Of a DNA stretch of 50,516 bases, positions 603 to 37,834 are shown piece by piece. The notes below the pieces were generated by a model. That model had not been told where the DNA came from and made no database searches. It saw only the letters and a program-made list of their open reading frames with translations. The position numbers were made by a program, and so were the translations under genes. Source of the stretch: a virus (taxonomy: Duplodnaviria; Caudoviricetes); IMG/VR virus record IMGVR_UViG_3300044834_000021, positions 1 through 50,516 of that record. One strand, 5' to 3'. Numbering within the stretch: the first letter of the stretch is position 1; every line of letters begins with the position of its first letter.

Positions 603-624
603 GTGTTCTTCCTTTCCCTCAGAC

Positions 625-1005: not shown

Positions 1006-1016
1006 CTTCCTCTCCT

Positions 1017-2783
1017 CTAGTTCGTCGCTGCGCGGGCCGACGCGGCGGCCTTTGCAACGTCCGGGTTGTTTTGCGTGACGATCTTGAGCGCGCTCGGGTA
1101 GTCGAGATCGCCCTTCGACTCCTGCATCGCGTTGAGCGCGAGACGGTGGAGCGCAGCGCGCGCGTCACCATCGGGATCGGGCGGCGTGGCCTCGGTGCCC
1201 TTCGATCCGCCGAAGATCGCGGGAGTCGCCGCGAGGTACTCCTTGAAGCCCTCGGGGTTGGACTTCGCGAACTTGGTGGCCCACGCCTTCTGAGCGGGGG
1301 CGACCTTCTTCTCCGTGATCGCCTGCGTGACGAGTGCGGTCGCGCGCTCCGTGGCACGCTCGGCCTTGAGCGTGACCAACTCTTCGCGCATCGCGTAGTC
1401 GGACGGCATCTTGCACGAGCCGTCTTCCCACTTGCCGCCCTTGTCCTCGCACTCGGCCTGCGTGGTGAACTCGCTCGCCACGCTGACCTTCTTGAACTTG
1501 GTCGCGGCCTCGGTGTTCGCGACTACGGCGGCGAGGATGTCCGCTTCGCTTGCCGTCTCCGCGAGTCCGAGGGCTTTGGCGATGACCTTCGGTTCCATGT
1601 TTGCTCCCTTCGCGTATTCACCTACGCCGGTCGCGGAGGCGTGCTGATCGAGGTGCGCTTTGGCCGCGTGGTCGCCGGACTTGAGTGCTGCGCGGAGGCC
1701 GCCGAGGTGCAGGAACATCTCGTCACCGGACACCCAATGGTGCGGATGGACCCACTTGGTCTTGTCGTCATCGGTCGCCACGGCGAAAGCCTCGGCCGGG
1801 AGTTGATCCTTCTCGATCTCGCTCCACGGTGGCTCGCCGCCACGTGATGTGTCGGAGTGCTTGAGCGCGGTACGCGCGTGCGCAGCCGCGTTGCCCTTGA
1901 GGAGGCCGCGTAGCGCGGCCGCCGTCTCGGTGAGGAACGAGCGCATCCGGGGCGCGCCGATCTTGCCCTTCGTGCCGTCCTTCACCTTCGCCGCGAGCGC
2001 CTCGAACTCGTCGGCGATGTTGTCCGCGATCTGATCGGTGCTCGCCTCGGAGAGGTCGTGATCCTTCGACGTGAACTTGATGACCGCATCGGCCTTCTTG
2101 TCGGAGGCGTAGGTGAGCGCGCCACCGTGGCGGCCGAGCGTGGAGCCGTAGAGGCTCACGATGTCGTCGAGGGTGGCGACGGCGGGTATCTCCTCACCGA
2201 GGAACGCGATCGCCTTGAGGACGTGCTTGTACGACTTGCCGTTCGGAGCCTTGCCGAACGAGCGCCAAATCTCCGAGGAGATGTTGCCGTATGCCTTCGC
2301 CTTGATGAGCGCCGCGATCTTCGCGGGCACCCGCGCCACGTCGGCCATCACCTTGTCGCCGACGCGGTACAGGTTGGTCACCCACCCGGCGGCGGGGTAG
2401 CCCTCGCGTTCGAGGAACTCTTGGTCGTCCTTGTGCCCGATCTTCGCGGGCGGTTCGAGGAGGCCCTCGGCCGTCAACTCGTTCGTGTTCTTGATGAGGT
2501 CCGCGATCTGCTCATCGGTGTACGGCTCGCCGTTCCAATGGCCGACGCTGAAAATCTCGACGCCGAGGAGGTCCTCGGTCGGGAGCGATTGGCCGTTGAT
2601 CGTGAGGGCCGTGCCGTCGTGGAAGTGGCCGATCGCGTGCTTCTTCGTGTCGCTCGATCCATCGCCGCCGCCCGACGCGATCGCGGTGCAGATGGTGCGC
2701 GCGCCCTCGTCGGTGAGTTCGGGGTCGCGGGATCGCTGCGCCACCATGCACGCATTGAGATCGGGGTACGGTCCTACGCTCAC
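1017..2783 (-). CDS. Mu-like prohead protease/scaffold fusion
   Basis: VEIFSVGHWNG, PAKIGH, PAAGWVTNL, YGNISSE, LKAIAFLGEEIPAV motifs. C-terminal scaffold region (KALGLAETASEADIL...ALVTQAITEKKVAPAQ). GTG 2783 lies 6 nt after TACGGT (leaderless). Confidence 0.85.
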   Translation of the reverse strand: MSVGPYPDLNACMVAQRSRDPELTDEGARTICTAIASGGGDGSSDTKKHAIGHFHDGTALTINGQSLPTEDLLGVEIFSVGHWNGEPYTDEQIADLIKNTNELTAEGLLEPPAKIGHKDDQEFLEREGYPAAGWVTNLYRVGDKVMADVARVPAKIAALIKAKAYGNISSEIWRSFGKAPNGKSYKHVLKAIAFLGEEIPAVATLDDIVSLYGSTLGRHGGALTYASDKKADAVIKFTSKDHDLSEASTDQIADNIADEFEALAAKVKDGTKGKIGAPRMRSFLTETAAALRGLLKGNAAAHARTALKHSDTSRGGEPPWSEIEKDQLPAEAFAVATDDDKTKWVHPHHWVSGDEMFLHLGGLRAALKSGDHAAKAHLDQHASATGVGEYAKGANMEPKVIAKALGLAETASEADILAAVVANTEAATKFKKVSVASEFTTQAECEDKGGKWEDGSCKMPSDYAMREELVTLKAERATERATALVTQAITEKKVAPAQKAWATKFAKSNPEGFKEYLAATPAIFGGSKGTEATPPDPDGDARAALHRLALNAMQESKGDLDYPSALKIVTQNNPDVAKAAASARAATN

Positions 2784-2832
2784 GCGCCGACCGTATAGCA
2801 CGCGAGTCCACGATAGGTAGCAGGGGTGCCAA

Positions 2833-2870
2833 CAAATAAGGCAGCGCCCCGGTCTGATCGGGACGCTGCC
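2833..2870 (-). terminator. Intrinsic terminator-like hairpin
   Basis: Minus strand: GGCAGCG...CGCTGCC stem followed by TTATTTGTT. Confidence 0.55.
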
Positions 2871-3116
2871 TTCGTGGGGAGGGGGAGGTGAGTCGGTCTA
2901 GTTCACGCCGCCGCCTGCCGGGTGAGGAGGGCGAGGAAGCATCGAGCGCAGAGGACCGAGATCGGGCCGTCGCGGATCACGCCGCGCCGGGTGCAGCCTC
3001 GGTGACATCGCTCGCCGTAGGGAACGAACTCTTCGATCGGCTCGTCGCCGTCCATGCCGCCACCATGAACGGGTGCAGACGGGGCGTCATGACGATTCGG
3101 TAATCCGCGTCGGGGC

Positions 3117-3344
3117 CTACGTGGCGGCGGGAACTCCCGCGAGCGCGAGCGCCTCGGCCTCGGTAATCTCGGTCGCGCCGATCTCGCCGTTGTACAGGTA
3201 TGCGGAAAGGGCCTCCGTGTCCTCGATCCACTTGCCCTGCGTCGGGTCGAAGCGTTCGAGGAAGAGGCCCTCTTCGGAGCGGCGCTCGCGAGCCACGTAG
3301 CGCAGCGCCCCCGCTAGATCGTCCACTCGGTAGTACCGGATCAT
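3117..3344 (-). CDS. Putative immunity protein for the MuF RelA/SpoT-like toxin (IapK-like)
   Basis: 75 aa with N-terminal RYYR, central W and C-terminal EITEAEA. From memory this resembles Apk2 immunity proteins. TAGACT -10 box lies 8 nt before the ATG. Confidence 0.55.
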   Translation of the reverse strand: MIRYYRVDDLAGALRYVARERRSEEGLFLERFDPTQGKWIEDTEALSAYLYNGEIGATEITEAEALALAGVPAAT

Positions 3345-3390
3345 TGAGGCGGAGTCTAGGCCCTACGCACCTCCGCCGGTTGGGTGATCT

Positions 3391-3606
3391 CTACGAGAGC
3401 CACCCGCCGACCTCGCCCGCGAGGAACTTGCGGCGGGCCTCCGCGATCGTGTCGGCCATCACCCACGCCCACTTGTCCACGCGGTCGATCCCGTTGCGGA
3501 CCTCGCGCTCGTTCGTCATGCCGTCGGCCGTGACCTCGACGATCTGCCGACCCATGTACGCGGGTCGCTTCGGGTACGCGATCTCGGCGAGATGGAAGCG
3601 CCTCAC
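3391..3606 (-). CDS. Hypothetical protein (71 aa)
   Basis: GTGA overlap with the upstream stop; phage-like codon usage. Confidence 0.6.
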   Translation of the reverse strand: MRRFHLAEIAYPKRPAYMGRQIVEVTADGMTNEREVRNGIDRVDKWAWVMADTIAEARRKFLAGEVGGWLS

Positions 3607-4202
3607 GAGTGCGCCTTCACGATGAACTTCGCGAGCGCGGCCTTCGCCGCCGCGCGGACTTGCTTCGCCTCGTTGAACGCGAGGGCCGTCTTGGTGACTT
3701 CCTCCTCGGCCGCTTCGAGTTCCCGTTCGAGGTGCTCGCGCTCGGCCCCGCCGAGGACCTTGATCGCTTCGGGTGTCTTCACCCACTCGTTGAAGGCTCG
3801 CTCGATCTCGGCTCCGATCGCGAGCCTCGCGGACTTGCTCGCGTCGTCGTGTCCCTTCGTGCCGTCCCACGCCCTCGTCGCGTAGAGGTTGGAGGCGTTC
3901 TCCTGCCTCGCCTTCCATTGGTCAGGCCCGTGAAGCCGCGCTTCGAGTTGCTTGTTCGACTCGTTCACGCCGTCGAACACCTCGTAGTTGTACCCATAGC
4001 CCTCGTACTTGCCGATGTGCCACGTCCCGTCGGACCACGGGAAGAGGTGCGCGCTCACGTGGTACTCGATGCCCCTGATCGGCCCCATCATCTTCGCCGT
4101 CCCGTGCTCGTAGCCGGGGTGCGAGACGTGGACGTGCTTCGCGTCGGTCGCGGTGATCTCGCGTGTGCCGAACTTCGTTTCGAGGATCGCGGTCTTGAAC
4201 AT
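3603..4202 (-). CDS. Hypothetical protein with C-terminal coiled coil (199 aa)
   Basis: ATG 4202 after AAGGAAGGGAG; downstream of repeat promoter 4225-4253. Confidence 0.75.
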   Translation of the reverse strand: MFKTAILETKFGTREITATDAKHVHVSHPGYEHGTAKMMGPIRGIEYHVSAHLFPWSDGTWHIGKYEGYGYNYEVFDGVNESNKQLEARLHGPDQWKARQENASNLYATRAWDGTKGHDDASKSARLAIGAEIERAFNEWVKTPEAIKVLGGAEREHLERELEAAEEEVTKTALAFNEAKQVRAAAKAALAKFIVKAHS

Positions 4203-4224
4203 CTCTAGTCTCCCTTCCTTCTTG

Positions 4225-4253
4225 ATCGTAGCCGTGTCGTCGCCTGTCGTCAA
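4225..4253 (-). promoter_or_regulatory. Repeat promoter/operator copy 1
   Basis: TTGACG-acaggcgacgacacggc (17)-TACGAT. Confidence 0.85.
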
Positions 4254-4429
4254 CCGGGCGTGCCGCGCGCCCACGCCGTCAGGAGCCGAGCGCGCGTCTG
4301 CTCCCAAAACCGTGCCTGCGTCTCGTTCGGCGGCTTCGCGTATCGGAAGTCGGAGATGACCTGAGTGATCGCGGCGTCGATGTCGAGCGCGTCCTTCTTG
4401 GAGAGGATCACGCTGCGCAGTTCGTCCAT
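4250..4429 (-). CDS. Hypothetical protein (59 aa, below ORF-track cutoff)
   Basis: MDELRSVILSKKDALDIDAAI...ARGTPG*; SD AAGGAG; its TGA lies inside the -35 box of copy 1. Confidence 0.65.
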   Translation of the reverse strand: MDELRSVILSKKDALDIDAAITQVISDFRYAKPPNETQARFWEQTRARLLTAWARGTPG

Positions 4430-4440
4430 CGGTCGGCTCC

Positions 4441-4797
4441 TTACGCTCCGGTCGCCAACGCGCGCTCGCGTGCGCCGGGTGTCTCGCGGAGGTACTTGTC
4501 TCGCGCCTTGCTCGCCGCCTTGAGGAACTTCGGTGCGCGCTCCACCGTGCCGTCAGGGTTGATGCGGAACGAGGCGACCTTGAACGCGGCGGTCTGCCCC
4601 TCGAAGTCGTTGATCCCGTGCTCGGCCATGCGGTAGATCGTGCCGGTGTACGCACCGTCATCGTTCTCGCGGCCGCGCTCGTAGAAGTACCGCGCGCCGC
4701 CCTCCATGAACGTGTTGGAGGAGCCGGTCTGCTCGCGGCACGCCTTCGTCCACAACTCCTCGGTCTTGCTCGCCGCCGCCGTCAATGAGTAGCCCAC
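4441..4797 (-). CDS. Hypothetical protein
   Basis: 118 aa; TAGTG overlap with the upstream gene. Confidence 0.7.
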   Translation of the reverse strand: MGYSLTAAASKTEELWTKACREQTGSSNTFMEGGARYFYERGRENDDGAYTGTIYRMAEHGINDFEGQTAAFKVASFRINPDGTVERAPKFLKAASKARDKYLRETPGARERALATGA

Positions 4798-5132
4798 TAG
4801 GTCCCGCCTTTCAGACCGAGGAGCGCGTCGAGCGCCTCGTCGGTCACGTACTTCTTCGCGATCTCATCCATGACGGCCTTCTGCGCGGGCGACGAGTCAC
4901 GGATGCCGGACCAATCGAAGCCCACGTCCGCGCCGTAGCCGAAGCCGTCCTGCTCGGCCCATATCTCCGCGATCGCCTCGGGGGCCACGTCCATCGCGGT
5001 CGTGATCCGCAGGAGGTTGCGCGAGCCGGTGAAGTTGTACCAACGACCCGCCTGCGCGTCCTCTTCGTTGAACGCGAACTCGCCCTTGTACTTGCCGGGA
5101 CCGATCACCTGCACGTTGCGGTACTTCTGCAT
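4797..5132 (-). CDS. Hypothetical protein
   Basis: 111 aa; SD GGAAGGGAG; downstream of copy 2. Confidence 0.75.
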   Translation of the reverse strand: MQKYRNVQVIGPGKYKGEFAFNEEDAQAGRWYNFTGSRNLLRITTAMDVAPEAIAEIWAEQDGFGYGADVGFDWSGIRDSSPAQKAVMDEIAKKYVTDEALDALLGLKGGT

Positions 5133-5155
5133 CTGTCAGTCTCCCTTCCGATCTG

Positions 5156-5183
5156 AGTCTAGCACGTCGTCACCTGTCGTCAC
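5156..5183 (-). promoter_or_regulatory. Repeat promoter/operator copy 2
   Basis: GTGACG-acaggtgacgacgtgc (16)-TAGACT. Confidence 0.75.
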
Positions 5184-5458
5184 CACGCGCCGCCCGTATT
5201 CTCCACGATCGCGACGATCCACTCGAAGATGTGCTGCTCGTGCATCTCCTCGACGCGGGCCTTGATCGCGCCGCCGGTCCTCGACTCCCACCCGCACTTG
5301 CAGGTGAGGTCGAAGCCGATCCCCTTCACGGAGACGCCCCACGGCTGCGTGTACCACTTGCCGCCGGTCGTCCACTTCCACGTGGCGCGGTGCCCGGCGC
5401 GCACGGCCTTGTAGTCGAGGCCCGCCTTCTTCGCGGCGCGCTCGGCGAGTCCGGTCAC
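5180..5458 (-). CDS. Hypothetical protein with CxCGW...H motif
   Basis: GTGA overlap at 5455-5458; stop TGA lies in the -35 box of copy 2. Confidence 0.7.
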   Translation of the reverse strand: MTGLAERAAKKAGLDYKAVRAGHRATWKWTTGGKWYTQPWGVSVKGIGFDLTCKCGWESRTGGAIKARVEEMHEQHIFEWIVAIVENTGGAW

Positions 5459-5637
5459 TTCTGACCACCTTTCTTCGCGAGCGCCTTGAGCGCCTTCTCG
5501 ATCTTGGTGAAGCAGGGGTCGCACACCTCGCCCGTCACCCATCCCTTCCCCGGCACGAAGGCCATGTGCTTCGTCCGCCACGGGTGGTCGGGGCACCCCC
5601 CGTCGATCGCCCTGCCGGTCTGTCTCTTCTGTCTCAC
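5455..5637 (-). CDS. Small Cys-containing hypothetical protein (leaderless)
   Basis: GTG 6 nt after the TACGCT of copy 3; CxxH and CxxC motifs. Confidence 0.6.
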   Translation of the reverse strand: MRQKRQTGRAIDGGCPDHPWRTKHMAFVPGKGWVTGEVCDPCFTKIEKALKALAKKGGQK

Positions 5638-5643
5638 GGTCGA

Positions 5644-5672
5644 AGCGTACTCCTGTCGTCACGTGTCGTCAA
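5644..5672 (-). promoter_or_regulatory. Repeat promoter/operator copy 3 (divergent pair with copy 4)
   Basis: TTGACG-acacgtgacgacaggag (17)-TACGCT. Confidence 0.85.
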
Positions 5673-5737
5673 CACAGATCGCGCGCACGCCCGCCGGGCT
5701 GATACCGACCCGACGCCGCTACCTATCTCGGTCGCGC

Positions 5738-5766
5738 TTGACGACAGGTGACGACGCGAGTACGCT
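5738..5766 (+). promoter_or_regulatory. Repeat promoter/operator copy 4
   Basis: TTGACG-acaggtgacgacgcgag (17)-TACGCT; ATG 6 nt downstream. Confidence 0.85.
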
Positions 5767-5772
5767 TTGGGC

Positions 5773-6630
5773 ATGAAGGAACAGGCCACCACCACCCTCG
5801 CGATCGAGACCGACACGGCGCTCGCCGCCCTGTACTACAGGAAGGCGGCGCTCGGCGAGGACATCTCGGGCGACGTGAAGACGCTCGACTTCTACACGAA
5901 GAAGGCGGGGAAGGGCGCACTCGCGCCGTGGGACGCCGAGGCCGTGAAGAGGACCGAGGCCGGTCTCGCGATCAAGAGGGCGGAGATGGCCGAGATCAAG
6001 AAGGCGATGGAGCCGCTCGAAGCGATCTACGAGGCGCACAGGTGGACGAGGGCCTTCCTCGTGGTGCAGTCGCACAAGGGCCACGTGCACTCCTCGATGC
6101 ATTGCTCGACGTGCTACCCGACCACGGCCTTCGTGTGGCTCCCGAAATACTCCGGTGAGAGCGAGACGAAGATCGTGGCCGACGCGGGCGAGCGGGCGTG
6201 CACGATCTGCTACCCGAGCGCGCCGGTAGACGCGAAGGGCACGGTGATCTTCTCCGAGGACGAGATCGCCGCCGCGAAAAGGAAGGCCGAGAAGGCCGAG
6301 GCCAAGATCGCGAAGGACGCCAAGAAGGCAGCGGCCGCGCCCACCAAGAGCGGCGCTCCCCTGACGATCATCGAGGTGAGCACGGGTTGGGACGGCAAGA
6401 GCCACTCGTACAAGAGGAGCCTCGCGACCGAGATCACGGCCAAGAGCGAGTACGTGAGCATGGCTCAGTCGATCGCGTGGTCGAAGTGGCCGCAGGACAT
6501 CGAGGCGAAGAAGGTGGCGATGGCGCAGATCGCCGAGGCCCTCGCCGAGAAGCATGGCGTGACGATCGAGGAAGAGATCGCGGCCCTCGCGAAGAAGGTG
6601 GCCGCGAAGAACAGGAAGGACGGGGGATGA
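5773..6630 (+). CDS. Conserved phage Zn-binding hypothetical protein (leaderless)
   Basis: GHVHSSMHCSTCYPTT...CTICYPSAP motif, recalled from actinophage early proteins; flanking coiled coils. Confidence 0.8.
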   Translation: MKEQATTTLAIETDTALAALYYRKAALGEDISGDVKTLDFYTKKAGKGALAPWDAEAVKRTEAGLAIKRAEMAEIKKAMEPLEAIYEAHRWTRAFLVVQSHKGHVHSSMHCSTCYPTTAFVWLPKYSGESETKIVADAGERACTICYPSAPVDAKGTVIFSEDEIAAAKRKAEKAEAKIAKDAKKAAAAPTKSGAPLTIIEVSTGWDGKSHSYKRSLATEITAKSEYVSMAQSIAWSKWPQDIEAKKVAMAQIAEALAEKHGVTIEEEIAALAKKVAAKNRKDGG

Positions 6631-6749
6631 GAGGCCCGGAGGGATCGTTCTTCGGATGGACAGGCGGCGAGGTCGTGGTCGGCCTGATCGTGCTCGCGTT
6701 CTTTGTGATCGCGGTCCTGATCGCCATGCGGATCAAGCCCCCCGCTTGA
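6627..6749 (+). CDS. Small single-pass membrane protein (40 aa)
   Basis: ATGA overlap; hydrophobic VVVGLIVLAFFVIAVLIAM; stop TGA lies in the -35 box of copy 5. Confidence 0.6.
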   Translation: MRGPEGSFFGWTGGEVVVGLIVLAFFVIAVLIAMRIKPPA

Positions 6750-6774
6750 CGACAGGTGACGACGATGGTACGCT
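6746..6774 (+). promoter_or_regulatory. Repeat promoter/operator copy 5
   Basis: TTGACG-acaggtgacgacgatgg (17)-TACGCT. Confidence 0.85.
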
Positions 6775-6802
6775 TGGGGCAGCAAGGAAGGGAGACCAAC
6801 AG

Positions 6803-7216
6803 ATGAAGAACCCGTGGGGCAAGAGCATTCCGGTGGAGCCGAGGGCCACACTCGCCGATCGGGCTTACGCGGTCTACGAGGACCTCAGACTTCCCGGTTG
6901 GACGTGGTACGTGCTCAAGGTCAACCAAGCGCCCGGATCGAAGAAGGGCAAGTTCTCGTCGGCGTTCTGCCTCGTGACCTCGCCGATGACCGGCGGGTCG
7001 GGCGATCTCGGTGACACGTACCTGAGCGACATCGGCGGCACACTCATCAAGGGCGTGGACATCAAGGCCGGTGCGCCGATCGTGGAGGACCCGCTCGCGG
7101 ACATCCTCGACAAGCCGATCCCCGGCAAGCAGTACGCGCTCACCTCGTTCAAGAACGGCGGGCCGTCGATCGCGAACGGCAACACGTGGGCCGAGTCCGA
7201 AGTGAAGGAGGACTAG
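6803..7216 (+). CDS. Hypothetical protein, DUF2958-like
   Basis: MKNPWGKS...WTWYVLK...FCLVTSP...DLGDTYLSDI; SD AAGGAAGGGAG. Confidence 0.65.
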   Translation: MKNPWGKSIPVEPRATLADRAYAVYEDLRLPGWTWYVLKVNQAPGSKKGKFSSAFCLVTSPMTGGSGDLGDTYLSDIGGTLIKGVDIKAGAPIVEDPLADILDKPIPGKQYALTSFKNGGPSIANGNTWAESEVKED

Positions 7217-7426
7217 ATGGGCTACATGAGCGCAATGGGATCGTGCTTCGGGTGCGGGCGACTCTTCTCGTTCAATCCCGATCGCGTTCCCTCGGTGACG
7301 CCGCCGGGCGGCACACGGGAGCCGATCTGCCCCGAGTGCGTGAAGCGCGCGAACGTGGTGCGCGCGAAGAACGGCAAGGCCCTCATCGTCCCGATGCCGG
7401 GGGCCTACGAGCCGGAGGAGGTCTGA
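7217..7426 (+). CDS. Small Zn-finger protein
   Basis: CFGC...CPEC; start abuts the upstream TAG. Confidence 0.7.
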   Translation: MGYMSAMGSCFGCGRLFSFNPDRVPSVTPPGGTREPICPECVKRANVVRAKNGKALIVPMPGAYEPEEV

Positions 7427-7427
7427 G

Positions 7428-7703
7428 ATGCCACGCAGCACACGCCGCCCGTATTGGCCCCGGTACTTCCTCGTGCACGACTCGGGCTTCCCGGCTCACG
7501 CGAAGGACGCCGGGACGCTCAAGAGGGCGCGCGACATCTATCACGCAGCCGGGTGGCACACGACGATCATCGGCCCGGTCGGCTCGCGCGAGGAGGCGAT
7601 GAAGAGGGCGCGGCCGTGGTGGGACAAGTTGCGCGCGGCCGAGCGCGCGCTCGCCGATCGCGCCGAGGCCCTCATGGCGGCGAAGAAGGAGAGCGCGTCG
7701 TGA
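7428..7703 (+). CDS. Hypothetical protein
   Basis: 91 aa; SD GGAGGAGG. Confidence 0.65.
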   Translation: MPRSTRRPYWPRYFLVHDSGFPAHAKDAGTLKRARDIYHAAGWHTTIIGPVGSREEAMKRARPWWDKLRAAERALADRAEALMAAKKESAS

Positions 7704-7828
7704 TGTGGCTCGACGAGGACAGGCGGCTCGGAGAGGCGCTCATCGAGCGCGCGGTCAACGGGGTCGAGGCCGCCGTGAGAGAGTGGGAACAAGAGATGAT
7801 CCGCGCGGACGAGGCTGTAGCCCGGTAA
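7703..7828 (+). CDS. Hypothetical protein (41 aa)
   Basis: TGATG overlap; SD AAGGAG. Confidence 0.5.
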   Translation: MWLDEDRRLGEALIERAVNGVEAAVREWEQEMIRADEAVAR

Positions 7829-7857
7829 TTCCGGGGTGGGTAGCGAGCGGCGCGGAG

Positions 7858-7888
7858 CCGCCGGGTGAAAGCCCGGCGGTTTTCTTTT
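7858..7888 (+). terminator. Intrinsic terminator ending the rightward cassette
   Basis: GCCGCCGGG-TGAAAG-CCCGGCGGT followed by TTTCTTTT; abuts the stop of the convergent MuF gene. Confidence 0.85.
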
Positions 7889-9104
7889 ACGCCGCGAGGT
7901 CGAGGTCGAGCACGCCGTTGGGACGCGGCACGGTCTTCCATGCGTCCGCGATCTTGCGCTCGATCGCGAGGCGCTCCTTCGGATCGGTGCTCGCCTTGAG
8001 GAGGTCGTAGAGCGGGTGGCTGATCCGCTCCTTCACGTCGATCGAGAAGGGCGTGTGGAACTGCATCTCGAAGAGTTGCCCGTTCTGCGCGCGCCATACG
8101 GTGTTGATCCCCTGATAGCCGGTGGCCTCGGCCTGCCATGCGTTCTTGACCCGGACGAGCGTGAAGCCCTGCGCGCGCAGGCGCGCGATCACGGTCTTGG
8201 TCCCGGCCGCGTACTGCTCGGCGCGGAAGAGGGTCGTGTAGCGGATCGCGTCCTTGATCGAGTCCTGCACGGCGGGCGCGACGAGGAGGTGGACATCCGC
8301 CGCGATCTTGCGCTCGATCGAGGCCACCGTCTTGAGCCGGAACTCGAAGCCGCCGAGCGTGCCATTCGCGTCGTCGGCCGCCTGCGCCACCGCGCGCGAG
8401 ATCGCAGGCTCGCTCGCGGCCGCGCGCTCGCGCACCGCCACCGCGTACTCCTTCGGCGTGCCGGTGGCGGGCAGCGACTTGACCGGCGGCGGGACGAACT
8501 CGGGCTTCGGTGAGACGGTCGGGGCCGGGAGCGGAACGATCGGGGCCGGAGGCGAGACGATTGGGCGTTCCCACGGTACGGGCGTCCCACGAGACGGCAG
8601 GGGCCGCCACGGAGGACGCGGGCTGAGAGGGCGCAGCGGGATCGCGCCGGGCGGGGCCTCGGTCTTGAGCGTGAGCACGAACTGACACCGGCACCGGCCG
8701 CGCCCCTCGCAGTCCACGTAGGGCGGCAGGAGCGCGTTGTACTCGGCCGAGCCGAACACGACCTCGGTCCCGTCGGCGGCCGCGCAGGCATCGCAGGTGT
8801 TCTCGTCGAGGAGCGAGGTGTACGTCGCGACCTCGATCTCCTGCGCGAACACCGTCATCTCATCGTGCCGCCCGAGCGCGAGCGCCTCACTCGCGAGGTT
8901 GTCGGCCGCCTGCGAGAGGAGCGAGTCCGCGCGCCCGGTGAGGACCTCGATGAAGTGCTCGGTCGTGGCCGCGTCGAGGTTGGACGTGCGCATCTGCGCG
9001 AGCGCCTCTTCGAGTGAGGCGAAGCGCAGGCCGTCCGCGATCTGCACCGCCTGCGCCGTAGCGCGCCCGGTGAGGATCGAGTTCGAGCGTCGGAGATCGA
9101 TCAC
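7887..9104 (-). CDS. MuF (gpF/SPP1 gp7-like) head morphogenesis protein with C-terminal RelA/SpoT-like nucleotidyltransferase toxin domain
   Basis: LDENTCDAC...PPYVDCEGRGRCRC (MuF), a Pro-rich linker, then FRLKTVASIERK, DAIRYT, VKNAW, YQGIN, FEMQFHT, HPLY. Start is uncertain; GTG 9104 chosen. Confidence 0.85.
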   Translation of the reverse strand: MIDLRRSNSILTGRATAQAVQIADGLRFASLEEALAQMRTSNLDAATTEHFIEVLTGRADSLLSQAADNLASEALALGRHDEMTVFAQEIEVATYTSLLDENTCDACAAADGTEVVFGSAEYNALLPPYVDCEGRGRCRCQFVLTLKTEAPPGAIPLRPLSPRPPWRPLPSRGTPVPWERPIVSPPAPIVPLPAPTVSPKPEFVPPPVKSLPATGTPKEYAVAVRERAAASEPAISRAVAQAADDANGTLGGFEFRLKTVASIERKIAADVHLLVAPAVQDSIKDAIRYTTLFRAEQYAAGTKTVIARLRAQGFTLVRVKNAWQAEATGYQGINTVWRAQNGQLFEMQFHTPFSIDVKERISHPLYDLLKASTDPKERLAIERKIADAWKTVPRPNGVLDLDLAA

Positions 9105-9240
9105 GAGGTTGCCCGAGCGGTATATGGGACTTTTCGCATTTGGCGTGGGGTCGATGCGCGAGTGCATTGAGGTCCATGCACTTTTGCATCGCTGCAAGGC
9201 CGCCAACTCAATGTCAAGGTCGATTTGCCGAGCACGACCC

Positions 9241-9258
9241 GTGACGACAAGTGACCAC
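9241..9258 (+). promoter_or_regulatory. Degenerate operator copy 6
   Basis: GTGACGACAAGTGACCAC in the divergent AT-richer intergenic region; no -10 box at the usual spacing. Confidence 0.45.
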
Positions 9259-9331
9259 AATCCCCTTTGTAGCCTGAGAGTTTACGGGTCCGCTTTTCAT
9301 ACTGAGGGTGTACCTCGGAAGGAGGACGCAG

Positions 9332-9481
9332 ATGAAGAAGTGTCGAGTGTGTTCCCGGTTCATGCGACCTCGATCCATCGCGCGCCCGAGCAAGGCGGAC
9401 CCGACCGTGTGTCAGGTGTGCTCCGACCTGACCTTCGCGCTTCACGGCAAGCGACCCGAGCAGAAGAGGAGGGCTGCCTAG
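9332..9481 (+). CDS. Small Zn-finger protein (49 aa)
   Basis: MKKCRVC...CQVC; SD GGAAGGAGG; TAG abuts the next ATG. Confidence 0.65.
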   Translation: MKKCRVCSRFMRPRSIARPSKADPTVCQVCSDLTFALHGKRPEQKRRAA

Positions 9482-10048
9482 ATGAGGGTGGTCAACGAGA
9501 CCTCGTATCGCACCGACCATCTCCGCGCGATCGCCGCGCGGGTGGCGAAGGTCGAGATCGAAGACGCCGGGGCGCGCAAGCGCCTCGTCGTCGTGTTCTC
9601 GTATCGCAAGCGCAGGGGGTGGCTCGCCGCCGCTCATGACACCGGAGTATCCGGGCACGCCTCGATGGGGAGCAACCGCTTCCCCGGCCGGGCCACGATC
9701 CTCGTCACGCGCTCGGGCATCGACCACACCGATCTCGCCTTCGTGCTCGCGCACGAGTTGGCTCACACGAGGGGCATGGGCCACGCGCTCATGCGCGGCT
9801 CCTCGATCTACCGGCGGGAGGGCGAGTGGCGCGCTCGCTACGAGTGGGCGGAGGCCATGCCGATCGACCTCAAGCCGGTGAAGGGCAAGAAGGTCGTGAC
9901 CCCGGAGGTCGCGCTCGCCATGAGGATCGCGCTCGCGCGCAGGCGCGAGAAGGAGTGGACGACGCGCGCGCGCCGCGCGGCGACGGCACTCAAGAAGTAC
10001 AAGCGCACGATCACGCGGCTCGAACGCAAGGCCGCGATCTCGACCTAG
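9482..10048 (+). CDS. HExxH zinc metallopeptidase-like protein (SprT-like) with basic C-terminal helix
   Basis: VLAHELAHTRGMGH. Confidence 0.7.
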   Translation: MRVVNETSYRTDHLRAIAARVAKVEIEDAGARKRLVVVFSYRKRRGWLAAAHDTGVSGHASMGSNRFPGRATILVTRSGIDHTDLAFVLAHELAHTRGMGHALMRGSSIYRREGEWRARYEWAEAMPIDLKPVKGKKVVTPEVALAMRIALARRREKEWTTRARRAATALKKYKRTITRLERKAAIST

Positions 10049-10053
10049 TGGAC

Positions 10054-10098
10054 GGCCCGGCCGGGGATCACCAACTGACACGGGCACCCGGCCGGGCC
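10054..10098. terminator. GC-rich hairpin between convergent genes
   Basis: GGCCCGGCCGGG (10054-65) pairs with CCCGGCCGGGCC (10087-98); a second stem spans 10142-10198. Confidence 0.5.
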
Positions 10099-10212
10099 TA
10101 GCCGTAACGCCCGCCCGCTCCGGGCAGTCTAGACACGAAGACACCTCGCCGGGGAGGACCGCAGCGACCCCGAGATCGACGGCGCTCCCGACGAGGTGCC
10201 TGAGTCACAAGC

Positions 10213-10683
10213 CTACGCGCGTCCCTTATCGGTGGCGGGCGGCGGCTTGCTCGTCACCTGCTCCACCTTGAGCGGCGCGAGTTCCTCCGCGCGCTTGACG
10301 ATCTCGACCGGGACCGGCCCCGGCTTGGACTCGCGCTTCGCGTCGGCGTCGGCTTCAAGACGACCCTCGGCCTTCGCGCTCGCCTTCGTGAGCGCGAGCA
10401 GTTCGGAGAGTCGGCCATCCACACGCTTGCCCAACTCGAACACGCCCTCCGAGGTCGAGATCATGATGGCGCGGCCTTCCTCGGCCGCCGTCTTCGCAGC
10501 CTCGGCGGCGGCGACTGCGGCGGCACCCTTCTCGGCGGCGATCACCTTCGCGGCCTCGGCGGCCACCTTCGCGTCGTTCGCCTTCTGCCCGTTGCGCAGC
10601 GTCACGACGAGCGCGCCGATCGCGGCGATGAGCGTCGTGATCGCCGTGATCGCGTTGGGTACGTCTTCCCAATTGAAGTCCAC
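10213..10683 (-). CDS. Holin-like single-TM protein
   Basis: N-terminal TM AITAITTLIAAIGALVVTL, a coiled coil and VDGRLSELL; SD GAGGAGG before GTG 10683. Confidence 0.55.
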   Translation of the reverse strand: MDFNWEDVPNAITAITTLIAAIGALVVTLRNGQKANDAKVAAEAAKVIAAEKGAAAVAAAEAAKTAAEEGRAIMISTSEGVFELGKRVDGRLSELLALTKASAKAEGRLEADADAKRESKPGPVPVEIVKRAEELAPLKVEQVTSKPPPATDKGRA

Positions 10684-10696
10684 TAGTCCTCCTCGT

Positions 10697-12811: not shown

Positions 12812-12814
12812 CCG

Positions 12815-32431: not shown

Positions 32432-32467
32432 AGTATATGGCTCATATACTCGTCGTCAACTGTCGTC
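32432..32467 (-). promoter_or_regulatory. Repeat promoter copy 7 with an extra palindromic operator
   Basis: TTGACG-16-TATACT. GACGAC-agtt-GACGAC is shifted 10 bp upstream. Perfect inverted repeat AGTATATG-N3-CATATACT at 32432-32450. Confidence 0.8.
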
Positions 32468-33457
32468 GCCGTCCGCGAGTTCCATGAGCCGGTCGGCCTC
32501 CTCGTCCTCGGCCTTGCGCTCGGCCGTGCCCTCCTCGATCTCCTCCTCCACGCGGTCCTCGTCGAGCGTCGAGGCGATGTCGCCCCATTGCTCGGCCGCC
32601 ACGCGGAGCCGGGCGCGCGCGTCCTCTTCCTTCGTGACCGCCTCATCCCACGCATCCTGATCGCGCAGTTCGAGCACCTCGCGCCGGACGAGACCGACGA
32701 GCACGTTGGGGTCGAGGGCGTCCAACTCCCACGACTCATCGCCGTACTCGCGCTCATACGCCTCGAAGCGCGAGTCGGTCACCTTCGCGGGGTTGGGCGG
32801 CGGGTTGTACCGCTCGATCTGATCGGTGTTGAGCGCAAGCCTGCGGAAGTCGAGCGCCCGCACCCCGAAGATGCCGAGGCGGTTCTCGATGTCGCGGCTC
32901 ATATCCATGCCGCTCGGATCGTGGTCGCCGAAGTGCAGGATCGTGACCTTCTGCCCGGCACGCTCGAAGGCGCGGAGCCGGATCGATGCGCCCCACATCT
33001 CGGACTGCGACACGTAGCCCCGGCAGGACAGGTACGGCACGTCGAGCGGAACGCAGGCGCGCTCCATGATCCCGGCGAGGGCCTCCTTCTCGACCCACAC
33101 CTCGATGCGCTTGCCCTGCTCGGCCCACTTGTCGATGCGGAACGAGGACGCCGCCGACTTCACCACGTCGGCCGGATCGTCCCAATGCGAGACCTTCTCA
33201 AGTTCGCGCGTGCGGTCCACGATCGCGTCCCAATCGATGAGACCCGCCATGCGGCCATCGTCGATGATGCCGCCGAGCCGCTTGTATTCCTGCACGCGGT
33301 TGGGGATGAGATCGCGCGCGACGAATTGGTAGTAAATCTGCCGGAGCGTGAGCGTGAAGCCCTGCGCTTGGTACTCGCGGATGATCGCGTTTGCCTGCGC
33401 GATGATCTTCGCCTTGACCGGCGAGACGACCTGATCTGAATACCTGATCTTCGGCAT
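32456..33457 (-). CDS. Topoisomerase VI subunit A/Spo11-like wHTH+TOPRIM protein
   Basis: LTLRQIYYQ, IEVWVEKEAL, RGY, HFGDHDPSG, ELDAL; acidic tail; its stop lies inside the -35 box of copy 7. Confidence 0.8.
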   Translation of the reverse strand: MPKIRYSDQVVSPVKAKIIAQANAIIREYQAQGFTLTLRQIYYQFVARDLIPNRVQEYKRLGGIIDDGRMAGLIDWDAIVDRTRELEKVSHWDDPADVVKSAASSFRIDKWAEQGKRIEVWVEKEALAGIMERACVPLDVPYLSCRGYVSQSEMWGASIRLRAFERAGQKVTILHFGDHDPSGMDMSRDIENRLGIFGVRALDFRRLALNTDQIERYNPPPNPAKVTDSRFEAYEREYGDESWELDALDPNVLVGLVRREVLELRDQDAWDEAVTKEEDARARLRVAAEQWGDIASTLDEDRVEEEIEEGTAERKAEDEEADRLMELADGDDS

Positions 33458-34111: not shown

Positions 34112-35430
34112 TTGGTCACCCCTTCCGTTGCGCCCACCGTAGCCGTGTCGTCGCCTGTCGTCAAGAGGGCGACGAACGCGCCCCGCGTGACGAGCGTTTG
34201 TTTCATCCCGTTCCATTCCTCGTGAGCCTTCACCGTGGCCTTGATCTTCACCACGTCGCCCTGCGCGATGCCCCGCTCCATCGGCACCTTCTTCTCGTCG
34301 TCGTGGAACTCGCCGGTCGGGACCCGCAGGCCGCTCGACGAAAACCACTTCGCCACGTTGCCCTTCTCGTCCTCGAACGTGTAGAGGAGCGAGTCGCCGA
34401 AGTCGCTCGGGATCACCTTCGGCTCCCTCACCAACTTGAGCGTCATCACTTGCCGCTTGCCGATCTCGCCGATCCACTCGGTCGGGTGCTCGGCCTTCGC
34501 CTTCTCGATCGCGTGCGCCTTCTCCTCGGCCCGGCCCTTCGCGCTCGGGATCGAGGCGAAGATGCCCCACGTGCGCTGCTCGATGTACTCCATGCCCGAG
34601 ACCACGCCGACGTTGTACCGATAGTCCTCGGTGCTCGGGTCCGCGTCCTCGCCCCACGCCCGCGCCCACTCGATGATCTCCCGAGCCTTCGCCCGTTCGT
34701 CCTCGGTCACCGCGATCCGTGTCGAGCCGCCGATGATCTCGCTGATCCGCTGCACCGTCGAGGGCGTCTTCGGCGGGTTGGCCTTCGCCTTCGAGATGAA
34801 GCCCTCGGCCGCGATGATCCGCAGCGCGAGCGCCATGAAGTCCTCGGCGTTCACCCGGTAGTAGCCGTGGCCGGTCGGCCGATCTCCGCCGTCCTCGTCC
34901 TCGGCATACCCGCCGAAGTCGAGCGAGGTGAGGAACTCGGCCTGCGCCGCGAGCGTCTCGGGCGATGTCGTGCGGATGAAGTCCGCGAGGCAGTTCCGGC
35001 CCACGAGCGCCGTCCGGCCGTCCTCGTGTTGCACCACGAAGGCGGCGAGCCTGCGCCTGATCTTGTGGCAATGGTCGCAGTCGTCGGGCGAAGCCTTGAG
35101 GTACGGCGCGGGGAGCGTGGCCCCCTCGGCGACCTTGATGAGCACTTGCCCTTCCACGTGCTTGAGCGCCGCGATGAAGTGCCACCCGGCGAGTACCGGC
35201 GTGGTGCCCTCGATCTTCGTGATGGCGTACCGGAACTCCTCCCGCACGCCGTCGGTCTCGATCACCTTGATCTCGGTGCGCAGCACCGTGACCACGATCG
35301 GCGGGAGCGCGAGCCGCTTCGCCCGCTTGTTGAGCCGCTCCACGTCGTACCGCAGTCGCGCGAGGTTGCCCTCGGGAATGCGATACTCCGCCTTCGGCTC
35401 CTGCTCGGGGGTGGTCTCGATCTCTTGCAC
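34108..35430 (-). CDS. Zn-finger plus C-terminal OB-fold nucleic-acid-binding protein (leaderless)
   Basis: CDHC...VGRNCL; WIGEIGKR...FG...GNVAKW...IKATVKAH...KQTLVTR. Confidence 0.75.
   Translation of the reverse strand: MQEIETTPEQEPKAEYRIPEGNLARLRYDVERLNKRAKRLALPPIVVTVLRTEIKVIETDGVREEFRYAITKIEGTTPVLAGWHFIAALKHVEGQVLIKVAEGATLPAPYLKASPDDCDHCHKIRRRLAAFVVQHEDGRTALVGRNCLADFIRTTSPETLAAQAEFLTSLDFGGYAEDEDGGDRPTGHGYYRVNAEDFMALALRIIAAEGFISKAKANPPKTPSTVQRISEIIGGSTRIAVTEDERAKAREIIEWARAWGEDADPSTEDYRYNVGVVSGMEYIEQRTWGIFASIPSAKGRAEEKAHAIEKAKAEHPTEWIGEIGKRQVMTLKLVREPKVIPSDFGDSLLYTFEDEKGNVAKWFSSSGLRVPTGEFHDDEKKVPMERGIAQGDVVKIKATVKAHEEWNGMKQTLVTRGAFVALLTTGDDTATVGATEGVTN
34136..34164 (-). promoter_or_regulatory. 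Repeat promoter/operator copy 8 (inside the 3' end of the upstream CDS)
   Basis: TTGACG-acaggcgacgacacggc-TACGGT; 27 nt identical to copy 1. Confidence 0.85.
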
Positions 35431-35436: not shown

Positions 35437-35465
35437 AGCGTACCCGCGTCGTCACCTGTCGTCAA
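35437..35465 (-). promoter_or_regulatory. Repeat promoter/operator copy 9 (divergent pair with copy 10)
   Basis: TTGACG-acaggtgacgacgcggg-TACGCT; GTG 6 nt downstream. Confidence 0.85.
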
Positions 35466-35499: not shown

Positions 35500-35528
35500 T
35501 TGACGACACCGGACGACGGGTGTACGGT
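35500..35528 (+). promoter_or_regulatory. Repeat promoter/operator copy 10
   Basis: TTGACG-acaccggacgacgggtg-TACGGT. Confidence 0.8.
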
Positions 35529-37045: not shown

Positions 37046-37834
37046 TCACCCCCTTCCATGACCGCTGCGAACGGCCGAGTCGCTCGGCGCTCCGCGCGGA
37101 CGAGATCGCGCGGTGCGCTTGGGAGCCGAGAGGATGAGACCCTTCGGCGGCCGCGCGCTCAACTCGATCAAGCGCGTGAGCCGCTTCACCTTCCCGGCCG
37201 GGAGACCGGGCGCTCCGGCCGCCCACTTCGCGAGCGGGTTGAGAAGTTCCTTGACCGCATCGAAGGACCATCCCACCTGCTCGACGTACTTGTTGAACTT
37301 GTCGAGATCGACCATGCCCGCTTCTCCCTTCGCGATCGCGAGTATGCGCTCGATGTCGAGGCCGCTCGGGCACGCGGTCGCGTTGTACCAACGGTGCGGC
37401 CCGCAGTTCTCTAGCGTGAGATCGAAACCGTATTCGGATGCAAGCGCCCGGTGGAGCGCAGCCGAGGCGAGGTACATCTCGGGCGTGCGCTCGGAGTCCC
37501 AATGCCGACCCTCGTCCTCGTGCTCGATGCCGACGCGCTCGACGTTGATCGGCCAATTGCCCGCGTGATACGCGATGTGCCATACGCGCACCCACATCAC
37601 GATCCTGCCCGAGAGACCGATGCCGAAGTGCGCGCTCACGTTCGAGGTCGGATTCTTGAAGCGCGCCTCGGCGCTCGCGATCGTGCCGACCATCGAGTGA
37701 TTGACCGTGCCGAGCACGGCGCGGAACGTGTTGTCGAAGTTCGAGGAGGGCAGCGGGCCGCGCCACTCGTTCGCCGGTAGCGCAGCCCGAAGCCTCTCGA
37801 CCGCGATCTTGGACGGTGGCGCGAGGACGAGCAC
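37046..37834 (-). CDS. N-acetylmuramoyl-L-alanine amidase (Amidase_2) endolysin
   Basis: VNHSMVG, VSAHFGI, AYHAGN, VGIEHE, PHR...TACP. Confidence 0.9.
   Translation of the reverse strand: MLVLAPPSKIAVERLRAALPANEWRGPLPSSNFDNTFRAVLGTVNHSMVGTIASAEARFKNPTSNVSAHFGIGLSGRIVMWVRVWHIAYHAGNWPINVERVGIEHEDEGRHWDSERTPEMYLASAALHRALASEYGFDLTLENCGPHRWYNATACPSGLDIERILAIAKGEAGMVDLDKFNKYVEQVGWSFDAVKELLNPLAKWAAGAPGLPAGKVKRLTRLIELSARPPKGLILSAPKRTARSRPRGAPSDSAVRSGHGRG

Follow-up and report, generated by a model that had tools for sequence, protein, structure and literature searches.

A family of predicted promoters with a tandem GACGAC core in a divergent small-gene island of an actinobacteriophage

Introduction

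Phages T4 and SPO1 carry host-takeover blocks in which many strong, closely similar early promoters stand before small genes of unknown function. Repeated, predicted early-type promoters heading a small-gene block in the head region of a soil phage, the subject of this study, belong to a known kind of architecture. The concept of repeat-mediated cassettes has already been published for T4-like phages as promoter-early stem-loops, or PeSLs (Arbiol et al. 2010, PMC2839356; Comeau et al. 2014, PMC4122927), which these reports propose, and in phi1/RB49 show, to mediate indels and mini-circles. For MuF-Apk2 toxin genes, the immunity genes are described as coming next (PMC12226406). The mapped promoters of Streptomyces are reported to have a TANNNT -10 and an NTGACC -35 element, with 21% leaderless mRNAs (PMC4895711).

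Herein, we analysed the whole 50,516-nt stretch of phage DNA in IMG/VR record IMGVR_UViG_3300044834_000021 (the window), in which an earlier reading of the sequence (the original prediction) had described an island of repeat-bounded small genes at 3391-7888. Protein family scans covered 60 (PHROGs) and 40 (Pfam) of the ~89 called genes.

Results

The island at 3391-7888 holds five copies of (T/G)TGACGACAsGyGACGAC. The whole window was searched with the pattern KTGACGACASGTGACGAC, allowing up to 3 mismatches, and 13 matches were observed against 0.49 expected; this number was attained in 0 of 100 shuffles. The search recovered all five repeat copies that had been proposed to cut the island into units, at 4236-4253(-), 5166-5183(-), 5655-5672(-), 5738-5755(+) and 6746-6763(+). 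The core, GACGACANNNGACGAC, has 10 exact copies in the window, and 15 with at most one mismatch, against 0.29 expected, and no shuffle attains the observed count. It consists of two tandem blocks, GACGAC(A)-N3-GACGAC, which are spaced by one helical turn and span the -35 and the spacer. Conservation is highest in these two blocks, whose columns are invariant, rather than in the TTG of the -35. Being asymmetric, the site has an orientation, which agrees with that of local transcription in each of the 10 exact copies. Nine of the 10 mark gene boundaries, and their flanks are conserved over 30-47 nt. The tenth, at 12209, is intragenic and has no -10; the one-mismatch sites at 9243 and 37032 have no -10 either.

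Each copy has the anatomy of a promoter, with a -35 of (T/G)TGACG, a spacer of 16-17 nt and a TACGCT-like -10 hexamer. A TANNNT was found 16-17 nt past TTGACG/GTGACG in 9 of the 10 exact core sites, with a same-strand gene start ahead, in agreement with the original prediction of promoter-like unit boundaries. The island copies are as follows.

4225..4253, minus strand: P4236, TTGACG-17-TACGAT, GGAAGGGAGAC leader at 4208-4218
5156..5183, minus strand: P5166, GTGACG-16-TAGACT, leader at 5139-5149
5644..5672, minus strand: P5655, TTGACG-17-TACGCT
5738..5766, plus strand: P5738, TTGACG-17-TACGCT, ATG at 5773, 6 nt past the -10
6746..6774, plus strand: P6746, TTGACG-17-TACGCT, GGAAGGGAGAC leader at 6786-6796

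In three copies (5655-, 5738+ and 35448-), a start codon (GTG or ATG) lies exactly 6 nt past TACGCT, implying leaderless mRNAs. The predicted promoters fit those mapped in Streptomyces (PMC4895711). A scan with the E. coli consensus flagged only 2 of 9 copies (4253 and 32459), because TACGCT agrees with TATAAT at three positions only; the copies read as actinobacterial-type. P6746 looks chimeric, with a P5738-like promoter and a P4236/P5166-like leader.

Four ORFs, 4250..4429(-), 5180..5458(-), 6627..6749(+) and 32456..33457(-), have the TGA of the first hexamer as their stop codon, which confirms all four cases originally noted (4250, 5180, 6747 and 32456). Two of them are in the leftward arm.

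4252-4250, minus strand: TGA inside the -35 of P4236, ending ORF 4250-4429
5182-5180, minus strand: TGA inside the -35 of P5166, ending ORF 5180-5458

A fifth case is the stop of 37046..37834(-), at a degenerate repeat copy. Of the five upstream genes that are co-directional, four have the TGA of the -35 as their stop (binomial 0.045, taking a one-in-three chance; n=5). Same-strand gene pairs touch or overlap in 46 of 76 cases, and since TTGACG/GTGACG contain TGA, this tight packing accounts for the stop codons in the -35 box. The upstream gene ends inside the promoter, and therefore the promoter-bearing gaps are only 47, 47, 51 and 53 nt. The leader GGAAGGGAGAC occurs exactly four times, at 4208(-), 5139(-), 6786(+) and 26450(+), and the first three each follow an island repeat, so a leader common to several units, as first described, is borne out in three. 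With up to 2 mismatches, 20 matches were found against 18.2 expected; near-matches are at chance level, and therefore meaning attaches to the exact copies only.

The interval 3391-7888 contains 13 high-GC3 ORFs, 7 on the minus and 6 on the plus strand, and the small genes diverge from 5638-5772. The divergent block of about 13 small genes thus stood as proposed, and its limits were too narrow: the leftward arm extends past 3391 through 3117-3344 and 2903-3055 to the terminator at 2838-2872. Both arms are closed by strong hairpins.

2838..2872, minus strand: intrinsic terminator of the leftward arm, a 14-bp stem followed by ATTTGTT, -28.8 kcal/mol
2903..3055, minus strand: 50-aa Cys-rich ORF closing the leftward arm, no Pfam family
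3117..3344, minus strand: 75-aa ORF, no significant Pfam family
3391..3606, minus strand: 71-aa ORF, GTGA overlap with the upstream stop, no family matched
3603..4202, minus strand: 199-aa ORF behind P4236 and a Shine-Dalgarno leader, no family matched
4250..4429, minus strand: 59-aa ORF call
4441..4797, minus strand: 118-aa ORF call
4797..5132, minus strand: 111-aa ORF behind P5166 and a Shine-Dalgarno leader
5180..5458, minus strand: 92-aa ORF, weak phrog_23779 match
5455..5637, minus strand: 60-aa ORF opening the leftward arm, GTG 6 nt past the -10, predicted leaderless
5773..6630, plus strand: 285-aa ORF, phrog_15500 at 3.4e-46
6627..6749, plus strand: 40-aa ORF containing a hydrophobic stretch and ending in the TGA of the next -35 (P6746)
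6803..7216, plus strand: 137-aa ORF, N-terminal ~90 aa a widespread small phage protein family
7217..7426, plus strand: 69-aa ORF with two CxxC pairs
7428..7703, plus strand: 91-aa ORF call
7703..7828, plus strand: 41-aa ORF call
~7854..7886, plus strand: terminator hairpin and T-tract ending the rightward arm, -27 kcal/mol

The family of the 285-aa ORF, of unknown function, is widespread in actinobacteriophages (matches in 319 phage records). The G+C content of the island equals that of the genome (0.664 vs 0.667). From its sequence, the 5-kb stretch 2838-7886 looks like a terminator-bounded divergent module of 15 small genes with its own, early-type transcription. It resembles a multi-gene 'moron' or host-takeover block. 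It sits between two flanking genes; upstream of these come a Mu-type portal and the large terminase.

1017..2801, minus strand: head maturation protease/scaffold (Mu-like_Pro)
7887..9167, minus strand: fusion of a MuF-like N-terminus and a small-alarmone-synthetase-like C-terminus

The MuF match of 7887-9167 is under the Pfam cut-off (18 bits vs 29.6), and its C-terminus matches the small alarmone synthetase 8vx3 (E 2e-20).

Outside the island, further copies of the family were located in the window.

35437..35465, minus strand: copy 35448-, in front of the leftward non-structural operon, whose GTG at 35430 is 6 nt past the -10, predicted leaderless
35500..35528, plus strand: its divergent partner, TTGACG-17-TACGGT, predicted to drive 35556-36007
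34136..34164, minus strand: copy in the 3' end of gene 34108-35430, 27 nt identical with P4236
32432..32469, minus strand: shifted-register copy, second half-site TTGACG as -35, 16 nt, TATACT
32458-32456, minus strand: TGA at the shifted-register copy, ending 32456-33457

Together, copies 35448- and 35500+ make up another divergent hub, which stands at the start of the non-structural operon. The island promoters are of the same family as those of this operon, and therefore the island looks early-type; its early timing is inferred from these shared promoters. The tandem core is kept at 32452 despite the shifted promoter register, suggesting that the core has a role of its own.

Discussion

We consider it probable that the repeats constitute a single promoter family of an actinobacteriophage, recognised by the host RNA polymerase (sigma-70/HrdB-type) and predicted to drive an early-type island. 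Host RNA polymerase would read the two divergent arms to the end terminators, and the predicted promoters would serve either a leaderless start 6 nt downstream or a short leader carrying the ribosome-binding GGAAGGGAGAC. The tandem GACGAC core is most likely an overlapping operator, probably for a phage-encoded repressor that, when bound there, would shut the promoters off. A candidate regulator is the HTH protein at 31633-31998, with weak GerE and sigma-region-4-like matches. It is not obvious why co-directional internal promoters would be needed at intervals of ~1 kb when no terminator intervenes.

Chance or codon use was considered as an origin of the repeats, since the genome is G+C-rich, GACGAC encodes Asp-Asp, and coding sequence contains the exact core at 12209 as well as several one-mismatch copies. 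The excess of exact cores over expectation and shuffles and the conserved flanks of the nine boundary copies leave this explanation a negligible probability. The invariance of GACGAC rather than TTG means that protein binding, not promoter activity, could be primary. The repeats would then be mainly stoperator-like sites with secondary hexamers, at which a repressor blocks initiation and elongation. The oriented, asymmetric sites agree with this, as do the three sites lacking a -10. The stoperators of Cluster A mycobacteriophages are likewise described as asymmetric, transcription-oriented repeats at gene ends, related to the early-promoter operator (PMC3029335, PMC5559632). They differ in being 13 bp long and of other sequence, spread throughout the genome in 21-34 copies against ~10 sites in two hubs here, and bound by a known immunity repressor; according to these sources they are not promoters, whereas the present repeats mostly carry a -10. 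A pure operator needs neither the correctly spaced TANNNT of nine exact sites nor the start codon at the expected transcript start of three. No immunity repressor or integrase was recognised by PHROGs (60) or Pfam (40) among the ~89 called genes. We thus regard a mainly stoperator-like function as improbable.

Two further explanations are compatible with the preferred promoter reading. It is doubtful, though somewhat less so, that the repeats are also PeSL-like mobile cassettes, that is, preferred recombination points for gene gain, loss and swap, which is the idea of the original prediction in its published form. Like PeSLs, the repeats flank single ORFans or small ORFan sets (PMC2839356). 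Copies pair across hubs (27 identical nt for P4236/P34147 and 22 for P5738/P35448), and the chimeric look of P6746 would suit an exchange. In the distant relative L010, portal and protease are separated by four co-directional genes, with no divergent island, which upholds the view of an accessory-looking block in the head module. The 137-aa gene family occurs in 17 IMG/VR loci without the other island genes. A MuF relative (P0005) and a protease relative (P0034) each lie on a Logan contig of 7750 bp; if these are one contig, as their equal size alone suggests, the gap is at most ~3.9 kb vs 5.1 kb here. Relatives at 65-73% protein identity are represented by short contigs only. Against shuffling, exact identity among same-strand island copies is 10-22 nt, compared with the ~100 nt reported for PeSLs (PMC2839356), and the units have no stem-loop (z-scores -1.6 to +2.4). 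No repeat-to-repeat joint was seen in the contigs of the single run that holds the phage, which cover it with 0 differences and in which rare variants are lost, and no paralogues link the island to the early region. The annealing recombinase once proposed as the driver found no counterpart: no recombinase was recognised in the PHROGs (60) and Pfam (40) scans of ~89 genes. The chance is slightly better, and still low, that part of the island provides immunity to the MuF/alarmone-synthetase fusion and is expressed early under promoters of its own; both the position and the variability of the island would then stem from the neighbouring polymorphic toxin gene, and the island would change when relatives swap the toxin domain. 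The synthetase match of 7887-9167 favours this, and P0004 and P0005 keep its N-terminus (64-75% identity) with an unrelated C-terminus bearing an HEFGH motif. As in MuF-Apk2 and other polymorphic toxin-immunity loci (PMC12226406, PMC5576092), a MuF-like N-terminus is joined to a variable, RelA/SpoT-type synthetase C-terminus, with variable genes directly downstream. The arrangement seen here recurs in L149/L150, which belong to an unrelated phage lineage (G+C 0.60): there too, the 137-aa gene has a homologue that is convergent with, and ~600 nt from, a protein carrying this synthetase-like domain. However, this synteny is found in one independent lineage (2 loci) among 17 loci, and the MuF match here is sub-threshold. 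No HD-type hydrolase or known immunity family was matched among the island genes. Known immunity genes are described as co-directional with the toxin, whereas the neighbours here converge on 7887-9167, and most island genes are left unexplained.

Several known systems thus resemble the predicted promoter island in part. The T4 and SPO1 takeover blocks belong to other phages and hosts, and the present island is inside the head-gene region. Morons of lambdoid and other phages are described as having their own promoter and terminator and being inserted among late structural genes (PMC3594210). They differ in being one gene, compared with 15 genes, two divergent arms and five promoters here, and the present island has the G+C of its genome, promoters shared with the phage's own early operon and no temperate sign. 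The likeness to integrons drawn at first fails on their defining parts: small genes are separated by a repeat in both, but here no integrase was recognised in the PHROGs (60) and Pfam (40) scans, an attC-type imperfect palindrome and a single Pc are lacking, and each unit has its own predicted promoter. The PeSL cassette is the closer published precedent (PMC2839356). PeSLs are likewise repeated sigma-70-like early promoter units, each with an upstream stop codon, -35/-10 boxes, Shine-Dalgarno and next start codon, and are reported to be concentrated in variable regions before ORFans, with a few inside virion modules. The present units differ from those described in lacking a stem-loop (terminators stand only at the two ends of the island) and an AT-rich block, in being conserved over ~30-47 nt with exact identity of 10-27 nt rather than ~100 nt, and in belonging to a phage of an actinobacterial host, with some copies predicted to be leaderless.

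Anatomy of the repeat family

At up to 3 mismatches, the 18-mer family had 13 matches in the window against 0.49 expected, five of them in the island of small genes, so the repeats of the original prediction are present. The invariant core, GACGACANNNGACGAC, occurs in 10 exact copies against 0.29 expected. We defined the anatomy by aligning nine copies and their flanks. Eight of these carry TTGACG or GTGACG, a spacer of 16-17 nt, and then TACGCT, TACGAT, TACGGT or TAGACT. The ninth, at 32452, keeps the tandem core but uses the second half-site as its -35 box, followed after 16 nt by TATACT. All nine have the sigma-70/HrdB-type arrangement, with a TTGACN-like -35 box and a TANNNT -10 box 16-18 nt apart, and each lies upstream of a gene and points toward it. 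A stricter scan for the E. coli consensus was passed by just two of the nine. In three copies (named by position and strand: 5655-, 5738+ and 35448-), a GTG or ATG start codon stands exactly 6 nt past the -10 box, at 5637, 5773 and 35430, respectively, which lends indirect support to transcripts starting about 6-7 nt after the -10 box. The other copies have a leader of 20-30 nt with a purine-rich ribosome-binding sequence. According to a Streptomyces study (PMC4895711), mapped promoters have a TANNNT -10 box and an NTGACC -35 box, and 21% of mRNAs are leaderless; the repeat copies agree with these experimentally mapped promoters in both the hexamers and the leaderless starts. That the repeats are promoter-like and delimit accessory units is borne out in silico.

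A leader shared by several units had also been proposed. Exact GGAAGGGAGAC does follow three island copies, but looser versions are no commoner than chance (20 matches against 18.2 expected). A fourth exact GGAAGGGAGAC lies at 26450 on the + strand, opposite to the surrounding genes, within 365 nt that hold no called gene (26297-26661). Folding of the nine units gave no common hairpin, with z-scores of -1.6 to +2.4 against shuffles. The 18-mer had no exact match in IMG/VR (0 stretches), and the motif was not described in the literature searched on repeated promoter motifs in actinobacteriophages, a search whose scope excluded supplementary files.

The repeat is a tandem direct repeat. What is invariant in it is a pair of GACGAC blocks spaced by ten nucleotides. 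The TTG of the -35 box does not belong to the invariant columns, and both blocks are retained at 32452 despite the different promoter register. The tandem is probably recognized by a DNA-binding protein, and such a regulator would probably repress, since its putative site spans the -35 box and the spacer. A candidate regulator, of the late genes or of the repeat, is the 122-aa protein encoded at 31633-31998 (-), which has a C-terminal HTH, weak GerE/LuxR and sigma region 4 matches, and a PHROG 'sigma factor' match at 2.7e-8. The divergent unit 35556-36007 encodes two small products that are likewise no more than candidates. All ten exact cores are asymmetric sites oriented with local transcription, as expected of stoperators; no cognate immunity repressor was recognized among the proteins scanned. 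Core-like sites without a -10 box occur at 37032-37049 (-), 12209-12224 (-) and 9243-9258 (+). The site at 12209 is an exact core within a gene, and that at 9243 separates two divergent units, the MuF-like gene and the + strand unit 9347-10048.

Stop codons within the -35 box

The TGA of (T/G)TGACG had been predicted to end the preceding gene at four sites, and it does so at every one, being the stop codon of 4250-4429, 5180-5458, 6627-6749 and 32456-33457. The degenerate copy at 37032 follows suit, its TGA terminating the endolysin-like gene upstream (37046-37834). Four of five co-directional upstream genes stop at the -35 TGA (nominal chance 0.045, n = 5). Same-strand genes touch or overlap in 46 of 76 pairs, and the promoter-bearing gaps are just 47-53 nt. 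A stop codon in the -35 box is consistent with this tight packing.

Genome layout and host

The 50,516-bp window is a complete virus record of IMG/VR whose ends overlap by 127 nt. G+C is about 0.67 along its whole length, and nearly all genes are on the - strand.

Gene order, read along the - strand
38.5-36.2 kb: lysis genes, first in the order
35.43-35.56 kb: divergent control region
After the control region: long non-structural operon, including a methyltransferase-like gene, a phrog_6247 gene and the HTH protein
Downstream of the non-structural operon: small and large terminase, then Mu-type portal
10213-15169, -: nine co-directional genes of unknown function, between portal and MuF-like gene
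9347-10048, +: short unit between the nine unknown genes and the MuF-like gene
7887-9167, -: MuF-like gene, followed by the island
1017-2801, -: protease/scaffold gene past the island, then a decoration-like gene and the capsid-position gene
3-602 with 50038-50505, -: capsid-position gene, spanning the ends of the record

With the 127-nt overlap removed, the capsid-position gene is one ORF of at most 333 codons, and 310 aa align at 43% identity with a 309-aa protein of the distant relative L010. Besides the right arm of the island, two short + strand units interrupt the - strand genome (9347-10048 and 35556-36007), and each ends in a strong hairpin facing the oncoming genes (10049-10110 and 36008-36060, respectively). 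Within the non-structural operon, 27487-27925 (439 nt) has no called gene. A G+C-rich hairpin there runs into T's, and ATTGTGGAG-like words recur; a role as replication origin or control region is possible. Rfam gave 0 matches and the tRNA scan 0 genes, and all-against-all blastp of the called proteins found no paralogues.

The host is most likely an actinobacterium, judging from three observations. The relatives of the portal protein reach just 32-35% identity, and the best of those listed are from phages of Gordonia and Rhodococcus. Homologues of 5773-6630 are present in 319 phage records, all with actinobacterial hosts. The only sequencing run found to contain the phage DNA is a soil metagenome, which may be the source of the record; no RNA run was among those listed.

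Extent and nature of the island

The original prediction placed about 13 small genes in 3391-7888. Thirteen ORFs with high third-position G+C do fill that interval, of which seven are on the - strand and the other six on the + strand, but the boundary was drawn too narrowly: two additional small genes extend the leftward arm, which is closed by a strong terminator at 2838-2872. On the right, the end is a hairpin and T-tract at about 7854-7886. Promoters of this family also stand at the head of the non-structural operon, where 35448- and 35500+ make up a second divergent hub; additional copies are found at 34147- and 32452-. Early-operon signals are therefore present in the island, though its neighbors are late head genes. 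In organization it is reminiscent of a multi-gene moron or host-takeover block; as in a moron, it has its own promoters and terminators within the late operon, as judged from the sequence.

The island products gave little to database searches. Pfam found no family. PHROGs returned two families for 5773-6630, neither of known function, along with one weak match to 5180-5458, and NCBIfam added nothing. Neither the 285-aa nor the 199-aa protein had a named family in the ESM Atlas. Among the products are several small, Cys-rich proteins and a hydrophobic peptide of 40 aa. The island had no Megablast match in 50,697 phage records. In G+C it matches the genome, which gives no hint of a recent foreign origin.

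The MuF-like fusion gene and a possible immunity gene

The gene at 7887-9167 joins a MuF-like N-terminus to a C-terminus (about residues 235-426) that matches a small alarmone synthetase (PDB 8vx3, E 2e-20) and is, below threshold in NCBIfam, similar to the end of XopAD/skwp family proteins. Phage_Mu_F (PF04233) matched both the window protein and four relatives, though below threshold (E 0.004; 18 bits, cut-off 29.6). The C-terminal domain varies among the relatives: it is synthetase-like in three (P0001-P0003), whereas P0004 and P0005 share the N-terminus but have an unrelated C-terminus of about 400 aa with an HEFGH motif. A PDB search with P0004 gave no match. A kept N-terminus with a swapped C-terminus is typical of MuF polymorphic toxins; immunity genes lie downstream of the toxin genes in these systems (PMC12226406).

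The 137-aa island protein encoded at 6803-7216 (+) may be such an immunity protein. Its N-terminal ~90 aa belong to a widespread family of small phage proteins (23 proteins in one search; 17 IMG/VR loci with G+C of 0.33-0.66). In an unrelated phage lineage (L149 and L150), the homologue is convergent to a protein with the same synthetase-like domain, as in the window; in L149, the two are at 5953-6321 and 6907-7932. When the synthetase-like domain was modelled in complex with the 137-aa family, the score was 0.00, which counts neither for nor against the assignment.

Proposed exchange of genes at the repeats

It had been proposed that the repeats are exchange points where genes are gained, lost and shuffled. 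We consider this unlikely. Four observations hint weakly at it. In L010 (portal 51%, protease 37% identity), the portal-to-protease interval holds four co-directional genes and no divergent island. A MuF relative (P0005) and a protease relative (P0034) are both on a 7750-bp Logan contig; if this is a single contig, the interval is shorter than in the window. Promoter copies of one hub pair with those of the other, and one of them looks like a chimera. The family of the 137-aa gene occurs without other island genes in its 17 IMG/VR loci. Against these stand the exact identity of same-strand island copies, which extends over only 10-22 nucleotides, and the contigs of the single run, which contained the phage without differences (three contigs at 80% likeness span 1-12000 with 0 differences). 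The repeat-to-repeat deletions or circles that shuffling would predict were not seen there, although contigs drop rare forms. The 15 joints listed in these contigs have a shorter side of just 21-34 letters. One of them, a 34-letter joint between opposite strands (4260|5766), involves two repeat copies; since its ends fall outside the shared repeat, we rejected it as a recombinant and read it as a cross-alignment of the repeat. Neither an integrase nor the annealing recombinase proposed as the driver was recognized among 60 proteins scanned with PHROGs and 40 with Pfam; about 29 genes, mostly small or tail genes, lay outside the PHROGs scan. The spot may also be variable owing to the neighboring MuF toxin fusion and its possible immunity genes, which we regard as a lead and not a finding.

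Relatives bearing on this question were distant or fragmentary. Short Logan contigs alone encode nearer relatives, two MuF-like proteins (73% and 65% identity) and one protease (67%), and no DNA of a close relative was found in phage records, IMG/VR, JGI metagenomes or GTDB genomes. In IMG/VR, the queries (MuF-like protein, protease, portal and MuF alignment) retrieved distant loci only (L008, L009 and L012-L014 at 27-34%, L011 at 33%, and L010). The JGI metagenomes, scanned with the MuF alignment, gave 427 pattern hits with no relative among these, and the GTDB scan gave one distant locus. The metagenome motif scan found at least 118 stretches; among the matches listed, only L044 and L072 had more than one copy, and these were 10-bp tandem arrays. 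The array unit is GGTGACGAC(A/G), at 1226-1330 in L044 and at 12788-12870 and 13418-13443 in L072; no homology to the phage was found on either contig. By tblastn across 121 loci, only L054 encoded a homologue of a non-island gene.

Implications and comparison with known systems

If the promoter reading is true, it gives a transcription map for an uncultured soil phage, with nine early promoters that are nearly identical and include three leaderless ones, together with a likely operator and two divergent hubs bounded by terminators. It would also mark 15 small orphan genes as early and probably host-directed, adjoining a polymorphic toxin fusion gene, and thereby supply a short testable list for anti-defence, host takeover and toxin immunity screens.

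The integron analogy is wrong. An IntI tyrosine-recombinase integrase was not found among the proteins scanned, and the attC-type imperfect inverted repeat is absent; the island repeat is a tandem direct repeat that does not fold. The promoter-early stem-loops (PeSLs) of T4-like phages are closer. As described in two reports (PMC2839356, PMC4122927), these are repeated early-promoter cassettes, each combining the stop codon of the upstream gene with a promoter (-35 and -10 boxes), a Shine-Dalgarno sequence and the start codon that follows. The cassettes lie beside ORFans, mark the sites of indels that distinguish phi1 from RB49, and give rise to mini-circles. The shuffling concept is therefore already in print for T4-like phages. 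The island shares the layout of a repeated sigma-70-like early promoter ahead of ORFans in a variable region. It differs in that the PeSL unit has a stable stem-loop (terminator/attenuator) and conservation over roughly 100 nt (PMC2839356); the island units have neither, which also speaks against shuffling. It is improbable, in our estimate, that the unit is an actinobacteriophage counterpart of the PeSL, at once a plug-in expression signal and an exchange point for single early genes. Such a unit would supply an upstream stop codon, a promoter, a tandem-repeat regulator site and a translation start, and early genes, possibly including MuF-toxin immunity genes, would move between the early operon and the head-region island. 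If the breakpoints of close relatives fall at the repeats, the PeSL idea would extend beyond T4-like phages. For now, the locus is a well-defined case of familiar phage architecture and not of a new mechanism, and it belongs with phage early-promoter families, moron-like units and PeSL-like cassettes.
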